Shown: positions 6,074 through 44,208 of the stretch, piece by piece
Layout: each line of letters starts with the position of its first letter
How positions within the stretch are numbered: position 1 is the stretch's first letter
DNA from: an uncultured bacterium
GTDB taxonomy: Bacteria; Patescibacteriota; Minisyncoccia; Phycocordibacterales; UBA9973
Assembly (NCBI GenBank): GCA_903834665.1
Contig: CAILJY010000070.1
Location: 1-45,132 of the forward strand
Length of the DNA: 45,132 bases
Reading direction: 5' to 3'
Translations under genes and position numbers: made by a program
The notes under the pieces: model-generated
What the model saw: the letters and a program-made list of their open reading frames with translations, nothing else
Told to the model about the DNA's origin: nothing
Database searches by the model: none

Positions 6074-6180
6074 ATAATAAGGATATAAAAATTGGGAGGG
6101 TTTGGCAAATTTTTGGAAATATAAATTAGGATTTAGTCACAAATATTTTTCTGTTGAAAAATCTTGTGATCCTGACTCAG

Positions 6181-6313
6181 TCAAGAAGAGGACTAGAACC
6201 TTACAGGTTCAGTATACCTTTCATATTTTTGAAAATATTAATTTTCAAAAATGTATTCAAGGTTTTCAAGATCCTCTCCCGCAAGCCAAGTAGTTGGCTT
6301 GCTCTGGGCACCA
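6181..6313 (+). ncRNA. tRNA-Leu-partnered structured element (copy B of the tRNA-end-mimic family)
   Basis: Same module order as the 137-nt repeats at 17679-17952: tRNA-Leu-derived arms, hairpin gaac-CTTACAG-gttc, a long AT hairpin, hairpin gcaagccaa-gtag-ttggcttgc, and an end of tctgggcacca. Strand is assigned by analogy with copy A. Confidence 0.45.
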
Positions 6314-17545: not shown

Positions 17546-17654
17546 TAAATCACCTCAAATAGGAATGAATGATTATTTGAGGTCTATTTGAAATTATAAT
17601 TTTACATCTACGCTATAGCTGAGATGTAATTATTAATAATAAAACAAAAGGACG

Positions 17655-17959
17655 AACTGAGTTTTCGAATTCTACACGCGAGACAAGCAGTTTATTTCGT
17701 TGGGTAGGAATTTCGATCCTTACAGGATCAGTACACCTTTTCCATTCGCGAGTACGCTCATATGGAAAAGGTTTTCGAATCCTACACGAAAGCCAATAAA
17801 TTGGCTTTCTCTCGGCGAGACAAGTAGTTTATTTCGTCGGGTAGGAATTTCGATCCTTACAGGATCAGTACACCTTTTCCGTTCGTGATTACACTCACAT
17901 GGAAAAGGTCTTCGAATCCTACACGAAAGCCAATAAATTGGTTTTCTCTCGGCGAGACA
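17655..17959 (+). ncRNA. Tandem array (2.3 x 137 nt) of the tRNA-end-mimic structured element, tRNA-Tyr-specific arms
   Basis: Units 17679-17815 and 17816-17952 differ at 9 of 137 positions. Truncated copies lie at 17661-17678 and 17953-17959. Stem substitutions are compensatory or give G-U pairs only on the plus strand. Confidence 0.6.
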
Positions 17960-18102: not shown

Positions 18103-18130
18103 ATTATACACATTTATTAATATTTTTCAA
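18103..18130 (-). promoter_or_regulatory. Candidate promoter of tRNA-Tyr
   Basis: On the minus strand: TTGAAA (18130-18125), 16-nt spacer, TATAAT (18108-18103), about 17 nt upstream of the tRNA 5' end. Confidence 0.5.
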
Positions 18131-18142
18131 CTTACTTTAAAT

Positions 18143-32625: not shown

Positions 32626-32708
32626 GAATATATTATAACATAATTTTTATTATATTTAGATAGTTGAAAAATAACTATTTTTAAGGTATTCTATAAGTGT
32701 TCAAATAT

Positions 32709-32779
32709 TTGGGGATCGTCTAATGGTAGGACAGTGGCCTTTGAAGCCATTAATTGGGGTTCGAATCCCTGTCCCCAAG
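32709..32779 (+). tRNA. tRNA-Gln (anticodon TTG), U1-A72 and G73, no encoded CCA
   Basis: ttggggatcgtctaatggtaggacagtggcctTTGaagccattaattggggttcgaatccctgtccccaag folds as a cloverleaf. Confidence 0.9.
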
Positions 32780-33065
32780 CAAAATTAAGAGAAACGCAAT
32801 TTTGCGTGGGGAAGAAAATGCGATTACGCATTTTCGCCAGGGATTCGGAGACCCTGAGTATATCGCACGGAGCTTTAGCGAGTACGATACGAAGGGTGTA
32901 CAGAATCTGTAAGATTCGAAAAGTGTAATCACGGTCCCTGTCAGGGATTCGAAAGACTTTTCCTTGCCGAAGGCGGAAAAGTACCCGCGACCGTAGGGCG
33001 AGAAATTCCCTGTCCCAATCTGTAAGATTCGAAAAGTGTACTCACGGTCCATGTCCCAATTTGTA
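32780..33065 (-). ncRNA. One full, one rearranged and one partial copy of the tRNA-end-mimic element with tRNA-Gln-specific arms
   Basis: Read on the minus strand, the module order equals that of the tRNA-Tyr copies. 32904-32942 and 33017-33055 match at 37/39 positions. Hairpin gaaaatgcg-atta-cgcattttc lies at 32814-32835. Confidence 0.5.
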
Positions 33066-33181
33066 AAAATTAAAAATTCCCTTGTAATATAATAATAATT
33101 TTTTAAATAAATTAGCATATATAAGATATGTATAGTATACTCCGAGAGTCGTTTTAGTAGAGTTTAATTTAGAATATTTAT

Positions 33182-44042: not shown

Positions 44043-44208
44043 TTTGTGCCCCGTGAGGGAATCATGATTACATGTTCGGTCACTCATAATTTTCTGGAGA
44101 AAATTTGTGCGACCCCGACTCAGCTCGTCAGCCTCCGTCTTTCGATTTTTTTAAACATACATTTGGGTATGTTTAAAAATCACAGATTTTGTGCTTCGCA
44201 AAAATTTG
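44043..44208 (+). repeat. Degenerate tRNA-end-mimic element bounded by 21-nt direct repeats of the tRNA-Lys 3' end
   Basis: tttgtgccccgtgagggaatc occurs at 44043-44063 and 44205-44225. Internal hairpins lie at 44088-44105 and 44153-44174, with a T-loop-like tctttcgatt at 44138-44147. Confidence 0.45.

Follow-up and report, generated by a model that had tools for sequence, protein, structure and literature searches.

The window, meaning the whole stretch of 45,132 nucleotides that was analysed (contig CAILJY010000070.1 of an uncultured Patescibacteriota bacterium), carries a tRNA-Gln(UUG) gene at positions 32709–32780 of the plus strand (ARAGORN; 61.1 bits with the Rfam tRNA model). Positions 32781–33059, directly 3' of this gene, hold a complete folded unit (unit 1), a rearranged second unit (unit 2) and a 39-nt partial repeat, all read on the plus strand. 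Every feature that a first-pass annotation had listed for this locus was found where it had been placed. The segment of the gene from the T-loop to the 3' end, together with the trailer (S1, about 32760–32786), is the source copied in both arms of the element. The 3' acceptor strand and trailer within it (32772–32786) form a hairpin, 32772–32812 overall, with the antisense acceptor arm A of unit 1, aattttgcgtgggga (32798–32812); this inverted repeat of 15 nt (93%) was absent from the first-pass annotation. An inner mini-hairpin, acgca/tgcgt, is seen in the sequence at 32794–32807. The next feature is hairpin P1, gaaaatgcg-atta-cgcattttc (32814–32835; sequence and RNAfold), which sits at the boundary between the acceptor arm and the T-stem arm (tRNA positions 65/66), a position likewise filled by a hairpin across the family described below. 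The string cagggattcggagacc follows at 32838–32853, its first 10 nt being 100% complementary to tRNA-Gln positions 32762–32771, and within it the antiT arm cagggattcgga (32838–32849) is the Watson-Crick complement of the 3' strand of the T-stem plus the T-loop.

The remainder of unit 1 forms its junction core and sense copy. Positions 32850–32897 comprise a junction G and the variable hairpin P2, closed by accct (32851–32855) and agggt (32893–32897) according to sequence and RNAfold; its class, gagtatatcgcacgg...agtacgatacgaa, is also found in loci L013, L038 and L093. The string ggtgtac (32895–32901) runs from P2 into the conserved core at 32898–32917, where the linker J2, GUACA, is followed by hairpin P3, gaat-CTGTAAG-attc (32903–32917), with its conserved UGUAA/GUA loop. 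Positions 32918–32942 then contain gaaaa, a mini-hairpin gtg-taat-cac (32923–32932), gg and the sense copy S2, again as read from sequence and RNAfold. S2, tccctgtc (32935–32942), repeats the 3' strand of the tRNA-Gln T-stem and the start of the acceptor strand and ends the sense-like string ggtccctgtc (32933–32942). This 3' end belongs to a 'subtype b' that recurs in loci L025, L043, L055, L065 and L096.

Unit 2 (32942–33016) was assigned from its sequence and from comparison with related loci to a distinct sub-class, type C. Its antiT arm cagggattcgaa (32942–32953) is complementary at 12/12 positions to the T-loop and T-stem of tRNA-Gln and is followed by agac, a hairpin P2' closed by cttttcc...ggaaaag (32957–32981), GUAC, a hairpin ccgcgacc-gta-gggcg and the sense copy gaaattccctgtccc (33002–33016). 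Type C units also occur in L006, L016, L030, L095, L132 and L136; in L132 and L136, near-identical units are likewise placed behind tRNA-Gln. Partial unit 3 (33017–33059) consists of a P3 repeat, a mini-hairpin gtg-tact-cac and a decayed sense copy tccatgtcccaa; as had been proposed from the sequence, positions 33017–33055 duplicate 32904–32942 over 39 nt (95%). The R1 covariance model gives a weak match at 32959–33044. An ORF call at 32750–33118 is spurious, being created by the element units. The composition of one full, one rearranged and one partial unit therefore agrees with the first-pass annotation, and its count of three copies stands; its term 'nested' does not, as a short array of tandem, recombined units describes the locus better. 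The array differs even from that of L123, the closest relative, whose neighbouring protein is 91% identical and in which the filling between the two repeats is not that of the window.

The Gln copy is one of several in the window. The 23-nt core GGTRTACNGANNCTGTAAGNNTC occurs four times, against 0.01 expected. With the R1 covariance model, the seed of which contained neither the Gln nor the Leu copy, Gln unit 1 scores 72.9 bits (E 6e-17) and the best opposite-strand matches reach at most 14 bits, so that the check set beforehand returned a score far above background. Behind tRNA-Tyr (minus strand, 17647–17956), two full units at 17838–17956 and 17701–17819 score 103.9 and 100 bits and form head-to-tail repeats 137 nt apart, next to a truncated third unit at 17647–17697. 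Behind tRNA-Leu(UAG) (minus strand, 6125–6312), a type A unit at 6182–6312 scores 76.2 bits and is accompanied by a degenerate type B 3' module at about 6125–6181, which was assigned by comparison with type B copies. The core repeats and the R1 scores bear out the proposal that the Gln, Tyr and Leu copies are one family. The 12-mer agtgtaatcacg reported to be shared between the Gln and Tyr copies is real and corresponds to the conserved mini-hairpin GYG-UAMU-CRC, which lies at the P2 apex in the Tyr copy and between P3 and the sense arm in the Gln copy. A related type B element, recognised by by-eye alignment with 16 type B copies, follows tRNA-Lys(CUU) on the minus strand (44047–44207); it has no GGTGTAC/CTGTAAG module and belongs to no Rfam family, and it terminates in 18 nt, gattccctcacggggcac, that repeat the end of the tRNA exactly and in direct orientation. 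A box GTTGAAAAATA near the Leu unit was considered as a promoter or terminator signal and rejected, as it is part of a type B hairpin. A family member is present at all four tRNA-unit ends of the window.

Searches beyond the window place the core motif in at least 119 stretches of species-representative genomes, and among the matches listed, all records that name a group are Patescibacteria. No match to the core motif was found in the 2.9 million viral contigs scanned, and a phage origin was therefore rejected. A tRNA gene lies within 700 nt upstream in 91 of the 128 instances listed and is on the same strand in all 91, typically 82–145 nt before the core, with 17 amino-acid types covered. Genes for tmRNA are also targets: in L012 a unit follows the tmRNA gene after about 40 nt, and in L119 the tmRNA end recurs as a sense copy at a distance of 1.8 kb downstream. 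This constancy of strand speaks against the earlier description of the element as convergent with its tRNA, which the listed instances with an upstream tRNA do not support; the Tyr and Leu copies had been read on the plus strand while their tRNAs are on the minus strand. For the same reason, the 'CTTACAG loop' that had been taken as the invariant form is the reverse complement of what is seen in the tRNA direction. Read in that direction, a unit consists of an antisense acceptor arm, P1, an antisense T-arm, a junction core (P2, GUAC, P3 with a UGUAA loop and an optional mini-hairpin) and a sense copy of the tRNA, which begins at the T-loop and can extend a few bases into the trailer.

Each arm of a unit is matched to the tRNA beside it. 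In local alignments, scores with the own tRNA and with other tRNAs are 12.2 versus 7.7 for the antisense and 15.1 versus 7.3 for the sense arm, and the antiT edit distance to the own tRNA is 0 in 33 and at most 1 in 58 of 75 units; together with the inverted repeats, this substantiates the arm specificity claimed for the locus at the outset. Several sense repeats of 20–27 nt are perfect, including that of L019, in which 27/27 bases are identical to the tRNA end. In general, the antisense arm is near-perfect while S2 decays, and of 18 positions that distinguish the tRNA from S2, the arm agrees with the tRNA at all 18. At 22 loci the A arm is a better match for the tRNA than for the downstream sense copy, at 8 a worse one and at 3 an equal one. 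The arm is a Watson-Crick complement of the tRNA 3' strand even opposite G·U pairs of the tRNA stem; a tandem duplicate of the tRNA 5' half was rejected on this ground. The complementarity continues into the trailer and terminator, giving perfect palindromes of up to 21 nt.

The fold covaries across the family. Helix cells are paired in 90.5% of cases compared to 66% in shuffles and at most 53% in slid controls, and 445 of them carry double changes compared to 122 in shuffles, indicating that the fold is selected. Covariation of the P2 helices was seen over 128 copies. P3 positions pair in 98% of cases, with AU, UA, CG and GC exchanging for one another and a loop-closing pair that covaries in variants, and P1 shows compensatory changes between the orthologous copies of L017 and L056. 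The strand evidence appears to lean weakly to the tRNA strand rather than against it: the minimum free energy (MFE) is lower on that strand in 104/123 units, mismatches comprise 138 purine-purine and 41 pyrimidine-pyrimidine cases, and helix wobbles comprise 41 G-U (2.1%) and 21 A-C (1.1%), an excess with p 0.057 after composition correction. For Gln unit 1, the z-score is −4.0 on the minus and −2.4 on the plus strand. Many units are enclosed by bidirectional terminators, so that their expression is uncertain, and promoter-like sites were no commoner in the promoter scan than in shuffles. An automatic terminator count gave at least 31/75, by a procedure that under-called obvious cases.

Occupancy is patchy and changes fast. 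The tRNA-Gln that neighbours the AI-2E gene was compared across orthologous sites. The window, L123, L132, L136 and L138 carry the element there, in keeping with the conservation in relatives that had been asked about, and L124, L126/127, L129, L130 and L135 lack it. Occupied sites vary in the types of unit and in how these are ordered. Around half of the tRNAs in motif-selected loci carry an element. The same core lineages are found behind different tRNA types, and the nearest relative of a core (P1 + P2) in another genome stood behind the same tRNA type in 0/18 cases, against 7% expected. Beside the tandem arrays at the Tyr and Gln loci, L116 holds two identical units with about 500 nt of other sequence between them, and L009, L022, L077, L094 and L121 carry kilobase-sized cargo between the tRNA and the module. 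Our search for a filled/empty pair with identical flanks found no clean case, and no excised form was found either; L137 and L138 diverge right after the tRNA, but their flanks are mismatched.

No protein gene is linked to the units. Cargo ORFs and all ORFs of at least 120 aa within 3 kb of 124 instances were clustered, and the only recurrent neighbour families were housekeeping ones. The cargo proteins contained no recombinase, transposase or reverse transcriptase (RT) domains, and no integrase or HUH gene recurred near the units. Exact-protein look-up returned contigs ending inside the element and one probable chimera (L001) for the AI-2E neighbour, and no record for the CxxC neighbour.

The element matches no described RNA family or mobile element. 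At gathering score, Rfam 15 detected only tRNA, rRNA and one L10 leader in the window and 18 related loci, and in E-value mode the Gln, Tyr, type B and Lys regions gave sub-threshold noise only. Full-text searches of the literature found no description of such a family; the TIGR-Tas paper mentions CPR bacteria in a context unrelated to it. A CRISPR or TIGR guide array was rejected, there being no regular repeats and no associated gene family, as were an H/ACA- or C/D-type guide (the boxes are missing and the junction leaves no target base unpaired) and an oriT/HUH nick site (the ATCCTG-like string lies in variable P3 positions). This is thus an undescribed family of protein-less folded elements, with a unit of about 110–140 nt, at the tRNA and tmRNA 3' ends of CPR bacteria of the Parcubacteria/Paceibacteria type.

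Several known systems share part of this anatomy. Integrative elements and genomic islands reportedly use the 3' ends of tRNA and tmRNA genes, with a T-loop class among those of tyrosine integrases; a direct repeat of the tRNA 3' segment, starting in the T-loop or the anticodon loop, flanks such elements, which contain a tyrosine or serine recombinase gene. Like them, the family uses tRNA and tmRNA 3' ends and shows a direct repeat from the T-loop to just past the gene end, with the intact gene on one side, a displaced copy on the other, arrays and sometimes cargo between repeats. It differs in having a unit of only about 110–140 nt, no integrase or other recombinase gene inside it and no integrase near it, an additional antisense target copy split by a hairpin, a conserved folded core, and a single family for essentially all tRNA types. 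The bridge (seek) RNA of IS110/IS1111 elements lies next to a DEDD recombinase gene and has two internal loops, each reading both strands of target and donor. It resembles the family as a non-coding module at a mobile-element edge with guide segments that flank a hairpin and are complementary to the target. In contrast, the family has no DEDD or serine recombinase gene at any locus, no recognisable donor-binding loop and no sequence similarity to bridge RNAs, and both halves of its guide are directed at a single uninterrupted strand, about 20 nt long.

MITEs combine fixed terminal inverted repeats with a short target-site duplication and are related to an autonomous IS. Like REP/BIME, Correia and ERIC repeats, they are small, non-coding, repeated, hairpin-rich, non-autonomous, intergenic and often near terminators, and in all this they resemble the family. 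The ends of the family are not fixed inverted repeats but are rewritten for each target, its repeat comprises at least 20 nt of the target, no transposase was found near units and, unlike REP-type repeats as well, it stands strictly at tRNA/tmRNA 3' ends in a single orientation. The primer-binding site of retroviruses and LTR elements is the complement of the 3'-terminal 18 nt of a mature tRNA including CCA, and the Neurospora Mauriceville retroplasmid has a tRNA-like 3' end; as in the family, some 18–20 nt are complementary to the end of a tRNA or mimic it, and the module recognised is the acceptor/T-arm top half. In the family, P1 breaks up the complement, an RT gene was not found, and the complement runs into the genomic trailer and terminator rather than ending on TGG/CCA, for which reason a primer-binding site for mature tRNA was rejected. 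Similar to the tRNA-like domain of tmRNA, YrlA and plant mitochondrial t-elements, A and antiT can close on S2 into an acceptor/T-stem stack, in which P1 would replace the D and anticodon arms. The T-loop of the family is paired by its complement instead of being free, its arms copy the 3' and not the 5' strand of the neighbouring tRNA, and ARAGORN and the Rfam tRNA model detected only the true tRNA and not the element.

We propose that the element is a mobile (integrative) module which is non-autonomous and uses base pairing to recognise tRNA 3' ends, a tentative reading to which we give a probability of about 0.4. The module occupies the gene segment from the T-loop to a few bases beyond the 3' end, leaving S1 with the functional tRNA and a displaced second copy, S2, at its far side. 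Between them lies a two-part antisense guide (anti-acceptor and anti-T-arm), divided by P1 at the acceptor/T-stem boundary, and after the guide comes the conserved three- or four-way junction (P2, GUAC, P3 with the UGUAA loop and the optional mini-hairpin). The guide would find the 3' end of a tRNA gene through base pairing, the junction may serve as a handle for a catalyst supplied in trans or may itself be catalytic, and arrays may arise from repeated entry or from unequal exchange at the repeated S copies. In favour of this reading we counted the tRNA and tmRNA context, the target-specific arms, the selected fold and the absence of a cis-encoded enzyme, as well as the sense-copy layout, since it is that of the attachment-site repeats of tRNA-integrated elements, and we read the lack of same-type core relatives, the patchy tRNA-Gln occupancy, L116, the arrays and the cargo as signatures of mobility. 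The anatomy, the tRNA-specific arms, the covariation, the confinement to one lineage, the patchy occupancy and the lack of a linked protein gene are observed, while it is inferred that mobility underlies the patchiness, that targets are recognised through base pairing and that a trans-acting enzyme exists. Against a mobile module, we counted the failure to find an excised form, a clean empty/filled pair or a catalyst, and the order A, P1, antiT, core, S2, in which target-derived and element-derived segments are interleaved in a way that neither Campbell integration nor insertion with target duplication produces. A near-perfect antisense arm beside a decayed S2 fits in-place function or palindrome gene conversion as well as a homing guide, and the patchiness could come from frequent loss instead of gain. 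Enclosure of many units by bidirectional terminators, and G-U pairs at only about 2% with an excess of p 0.057, were counted against it as well. A stronger form of the proposal, which we consider improbable, is a self-contained programmable device whose guide pairs with the tRNA-gene 3' end, whose junction recruits a chromosomal enzyme or catalyses by itself, and which performs site-specific integration or exchange with the guide re-templated for each tRNA. If true, it would be a bridge-RNA-like or ribozyme-like recombination system without its own recombinase gene.

A function for the host is the rival that we take most seriously, even if it is rather doubtful. Here the element would be a cis-acting RNA, made by read-through, whose guide pairs with the 3' 20 nt and trailer of its own pre-tRNA, or with S2 to give a closed fold resembling the top half of a tRNA, while the junction would recruit or perform 3'-end processing, termination back-up, quality control or decay of the tRNA. 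Such a role agrees with the invariable position of the element directly downstream of a co-oriented tRNA in the listed instances with an upstream tRNA, with its presence at all four tRNA-unit ends of the window, and with L017 and L056, in which no terminator separates the tRNA from the A arm (82–86 nt). The arm also tracks the live tRNA and not the displaced copy, its complementarity enters the trailer, as expected for a precursor rather than the mature CCA end, and conserved junctions and internal loops are purine-rich, beside the lower MFE on the tRNA strand (104/123 units). It is harder to reconcile with close relatives that have no element at the same tRNA-Gln, with the half of tRNAs in motif-selected loci that do without it, with core lineages independent of tRNA type and with the canonical bidirectional terminators often found between tRNA and element. 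Pairing with S1 would moreover unfold the tRNA, and arrays, cargo and S2 copies are left unexplained.

It is unlikely that the functional molecule is instead the opposite strand, as 'convergent' would imply, or folded single-stranded DNA acting as a structured recombination site like attC or CTX attP, in which the S1:antisense hairpin would rebuild the double-stranded end of the tRNA gene for a recombinase in trans. The almost purely Watson-Crick helices, with G-U (2.1%) in non-significant excess over A-C (1.1%) after composition correction, suit this explanation, and so does the z-score of Gln unit 1, which is stronger on the minus strand. Units often lie between bidirectional terminators with no room for a promoter, and an opposite-strand transcript would stop at such a terminator carrying a perfect sense copy of the tRNA end. 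It is opposed by the MFE and purine-purine mismatch counts given above, by the absence of a recurring integrase or HUH gene nearby, and by orientation, which follows the tRNA and not the replication strand: within one GC-skew domain, the Gln copy is on the plus strand and the Tyr, Leu and Lys copies are on the minus strand.

Less likely still is a small ribozyme of a new kind that cleaves itself or ligates and that might serve a small replicon or retro-element as its processing module. The arm:S helix would be its substrate and the three-way junction, with GAAR, GUAC and UGUAA invariant, its catalytic core. As in the hammerhead and other small ribozymes, three or four helices meet in a junction, the stems covary and roughly a dozen bases of the junction and loops are invariant; types A, B and C are modular around the same junction, the Tyr locus has head-to-tail repeats 137 nt apart, and the idea is compatible with a mobile module. 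The hammerhead has a core CUGANGA...GAAA around a three-way junction and a UH cleavage site. This core is absent from the family, whose own is GUACNGA and whose P2-P3 strand, GUAC(N)GA-NN, has no G8/A9 in register; CTGA...GAAA strings are in the wrong register, the hammerhead string CUGACGAG of the Lys copy sits in a variable hairpin, and the hammerhead was rejected. No ribozyme model, the hammerhead model included, matched even at E up to 10, no RT gene lies nearby, and G-U pairs are very few. Finally, a functionless by-product, an S, inverted S, S triplication from replication template switching between the two natural hairpins of the tRNA gene (that of the terminator and that of the T arm, which contains the palindrome TTCGAA), would account for S-S'-S junctions lying at the terminator loop and in the T-loop and for an antisense copy that extends over the trailer and half of the terminator, in many cases forming a perfect palindrome, but is very improbable, since P1, P2, GUAC and P3 are conserved in sequence and covariation in more than 100 species and behind all tRNA types, and it leaves the restriction to one bacterial lineage unexplained.

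The units have a practical side, in that they break metagenome assemblies at tRNA genes, yielding short contigs that end in the element and the probable chimera L001, and also yield spurious ORF calls. If the family is as it appears, it would be an undescribed feature, widespread in the genomes of a bacterial radiation that is among the largest and least understood, in which a folded module writes antisense and sense copies of the 3' end of its neighbour around itself for essentially every tRNA type and for tmRNA. It raises the testable question of how a guide of about 20 nt is re-specified for each target without a linked enzyme. Any answer would be new biology, be it an RNA-guided recombinase acting in trans, a ribozyme, a single-strand attachment site that folds, or a device controlling tRNA precursors, and the module, if programmable, may also be a potential tool.

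Every hairpin, arm and repeat listed behind the tRNA-Gln(UUG) gene (32709-32780, plus strand) in the first-pass annotation was recovered by sequence check at the position given, and the array resolves into plus-strand units. Unit 1 (32798-32942) is a full unit of type A, with a mini-hairpin in the region of S2, the displaced sense copy of the tRNA end. Unit 2 (32942-33016) falls into a sub-class of its own, type C, whose core consists of AGAC, P2', GUAC and a hairpin with a GUA triloop; further members were found in the related loci L006, L016, L030 and L095 and, following tRNA-Gln, in L132 and L136. A partial repeat (33017-33059) then carries P3, the mini-hairpin and S2 again, with 33017-33055 a 95% repeat of 32904-32942. 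The arms are Gln-specific, as had been proposed: cagggattcg (32838-32847) and cagggattcgaa (32942-32953) are both perfect complements of the tRNA-Gln T-loop and T-stem, and the tRNA 3' end with its trailer pairs with 32798-32812. Four copies of a 23-nt core, GGTRTACNGANNCTGTAAGNNTC, are present in the window (0.01 expected).

The Gln, Tyr and Leu copies were also correctly grouped as one family. R1, our covariance model of the unit (seed: 34 units from other genomes and one Tyr unit), scored Gln at 72.9 bits (E 6e-17), Leu at 76.2 bits and the Tyr units at 103.9 bits (non-seed copy) and 100 bits (seed copy), above background, with the best reverse-strand matches at 14 bits or less; R1 units in the loci of other genomes uphold conservation of the arrangement in relatives. 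The element was also described as convergent with its tRNA; in that form the description is wrong, since the motif lies on the tRNA's own strand in 91 of 91 instances with an upstream tRNA.

Read in tRNA direction, a unit consists of S1 (the tRNA from T-loop to 3' end, plus trailer), a hairpin (in many cases a bidirectional terminator of canonical form), arm A (the antisense of the acceptor 3' strand plus trailer), hairpin P1, arm antiT (antisense to the T-stem 3' strand and T-loop, ending in ...TTCGAA), one purine, the long variable hairpin P2 (beginning ACC, finishing GGU), GUAC(N), P3 (GANN-CUGUAAG-NNUC) and S2, which repeats the tRNA from the T-loop onward. In some units AU or a mini-hairpin (GYG-UAMU-CRC) splits S2 behind TTCGAA; in the Gln copy it is the mini-hairpin. 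P1 sits at the position of the acceptor/T-stem boundary. The fold predicted for Gln unit 1 by RNAfold, a four-way junction closed by antiT:S2, agrees exactly with this anatomy.

Both arms align better with their own tRNA than with other tRNAs. The 12-nt antiT arm is perfect in 33 of 75 units and within one edit in 58, versus 15 units with a perfect sense copy of these 12 nt (p 2e-7); over the 8 nt of the acceptor part, antisense and sense arms of these units do not differ. At all 18 positions where tRNA and S2 differ, antiT agrees with the tRNA. In 22 loci arm A matches the tRNA plus trailer more closely than it matches S2; in eight the reverse holds, and in three the two fits are equal. Its palindromes, up to 21 nt long, take in the trailer and not CCA. 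The antisense arm thus has the gene or precursor as its template and not the mature tRNA. At G.U pairs of the tRNA the arm bases are Watson-Crick complements of the 3' strand, which makes the arms antisense to that strand rather than copies of the tRNA 5' half.

A core-motif scan that took one genome for each of 185,579 species gave matches in at least 119 stretches. Among the matches listed, every title naming a group is patescibacterial (Parcu-/Paceibacteria, Nomura-, Kaiser-, Zambryski-, Adler-, Lloyd- and Taylorbacteria, one Woesebacteria); about 35 random matches over all taxa were expected by our estimate under a uniform-composition null, and none listed looks random. Viral contigs searched for the motif gave no match. 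With R1, the first 100 sources yielded 128 units, many of them lacking the exact motif, and the remaining loci another 32. A tRNA gene lies within 700 nt upstream of 91 of 128 motif instances, typically at 82-145 nt, and 17 amino-acid types are represented. tmRNA genes are targets too: in L012 (7259-7811) a unit directly follows the tmRNA gene, and in L119 (347-2549) one lies 1.8 kb downstream, its sense arm fitting the tmRNA 3' end, with a 439-aa ORF between.

The window itself is bacterial DNA of about 31% G+C that holds five tRNA genes and the beginning of a 16S gene; both its proteins and every related sequence indicate CPR bacteria of the Parcubacteria/Paceibacteria type. A promoter-like box (GTTGAAAAATA, 17 nt, then TATTCT or TATAAT) precedes tRNA-Gln (32663-32692) and tRNA-Tyr (18103-18131) and is preserved among the relatives L123-L138. 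A 122-aa minus-strand ORF (32750-33118) lies wholly inside the tRNA-Gln gene and array; it is almost certainly spurious, though gene callers are likely to annotate it.

Further family copies accompany tRNA-Tyr, tRNA-Leu and tRNA-Lys, all on the minus strand. In type B, a larger relative seen in at least 16 loci, the P2/P3 junction is set within an outer scaffold (GACGGAG ... GAGGCGGGUGAG ... GUGAC). The type B relative behind tRNA-Lys(CUU) (44047-44207, minus) is without this inner GGTGTAC/CTGTAAG module; its last 18 nt repeat the tRNA 3' end exactly and in direct orientation (gattccctcacggggcac), and a bidirectional terminator follows. Behind the Leu type A unit lies a degenerate 3' module of type B (tgagtcagg-atcac-aagatttttcaacagaaaaat-atttgtgac-taaatcc; 6125-6181, minus), so the Leu locus is composite too. 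The third Tyr unit, at 17647-17697 (minus), is truncated: P1 and core are missing, and the antisense acceptor arm runs straight into the antisense T arm.

Occupancy is patchy. The comparison covered 24 loci that encode AI-2E transporter relatives beside tRNA-Gln. L123 (91% protein identity) carries unit 1, but its spacer hairpin differs and other sequence fills the place of unit 2; the last S2 of its array is a complete tRNA end plus terminator, as a displaced original end should look. L132 has a single type C unit with the tRNA inverted, L136 a type C then a type A unit, each with its own S-hairpin-A palindrome, and L138 a type C-like unit; the orthologous tRNA-Gln in L124, L126/127, L129, L130 and L135 has no element. 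Relative to the AI-2E gene, tRNA-Gln is inverted in L132 (with element) and L126/127 (without) compared with window 32626-32780. L137 and L138 are identical upstream and through tRNA-Gln and part immediately behind cagcaaaacga, where one contig has a plain terminator and the other an element. The pair resembles a strain-level polymorphism, although the flanks do not match. A search for a clean empty site found none.

Cores also change tRNA type: the nearest core (P1 and P2) in another genome lay behind the same tRNA type in 0 of 18 cases (7% expected), and the cores of one Tyr and one Gln unit are 87% identical. In L116 (minus strand of the locus; reverse-complement coordinates 1150-2050) two 100% identical units, each with trailer and terminator, lie about 500 nt apart in the layout S-E-S-X-E-S, and in five loci 1.5-3.6 kb of unrelated genes separate tRNA and module. 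No recombinase, transposase or RT was found in the cargo or recurrently nearby. Two further layouts were noted. The metagenome contig L001 (1-760) is identical to the window until the end of unit 2 (33016), then continues with a complete tRNA-Gln end and another AI-2E allele; the contig is probably chimeric, with two species joined via the near-identical type C unit (L132-like arrangement). In the single-cell genome L041 (2630-2911) the 5' part of a truncated tRNA-Leu, which ends in the T-loop, precedes a unit and a complete tRNA-Leu; the layout reflects either genuine insertion into a duplicated gene or a chimera made during amplification.

Because of the T-loop-to-3'-end repeat, the tRNA and tmRNA targets, arrays, cargo, patchy occupancy and cores that change tRNA type, we tentatively favor (probability about 0.42) a non-autonomous mobile module that would recognize the tRNA-gene end through base pairing, its conserved junction serving as handle or as catalyst. 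Weak points of this reading are that neither a catalyst nor a clean empty site was found and that target and element segments are interleaved (A, P1, antiT, core, S2), an order that, to our knowledge, no known insertion mechanism yields.

The fold itself is constrained: P2 and P3 covary, with 90.5% of cells paired versus 66% in shuffles, 445 double-change cells versus 122, and slid controls at 53% or less; in variants the P3 loop-closing pair covaries as well, and GUAC and (U)GUA(A) are the single-stranded bases that stay conserved. A cis-acting RNA of the tRNA precursor would be a rather unlikely explanation; units in L017 and L056 follow their tRNA without a terminator, and many others are enclosed by two bidirectional terminators. 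Less probable again is a recombination site formed by the opposite strand or by folded single-stranded DNA: MFE is lower on the tRNA strand in 104 of 123 units and purine-purine mismatches exceed pyrimidine-pyrimidine ones (138 versus 41), and G-U outnumbers A-C (41 versus 21), all three counting for the tRNA strand; the G-U excess has p 0.057 after composition correction, with G-U at only about 2% of pairs. The selected fold may be RNA of the tRNA strand, RNA of the opposite strand or single-stranded DNA, and we lean towards the tRNA strand. A new ribozyme is doubtful as an explanation of its own and is compatible with the mobile module. In the layout S, inverted S, S the junctions fall at the two natural hairpins of the tRNA gene, suggesting that template switching contributes to arm rewriting; it cannot account for the conserved P1 and core, and a passive by-product is very improbable.

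Among known systems, integrase-type islands in tRNA/tmRNA genes are closest in layout, sharing repeat and target range with the element, which has no integrase. IS110 bridge RNAs are closest in logic, with a guide flanking a hairpin in both; unlike them, the element is without a recombinase gene and its guide addresses one strand only. It belongs to no Rfam family and is neither a hammerhead nor a MITE, PBS, tRNA-like structure or guide array. A literature search of incomplete coverage returned no description of the family, and an earlier one is possible. The element is real, widespread in one radiation and structurally constrained; it is probably mobile, and it is unlike any described system among those compared.
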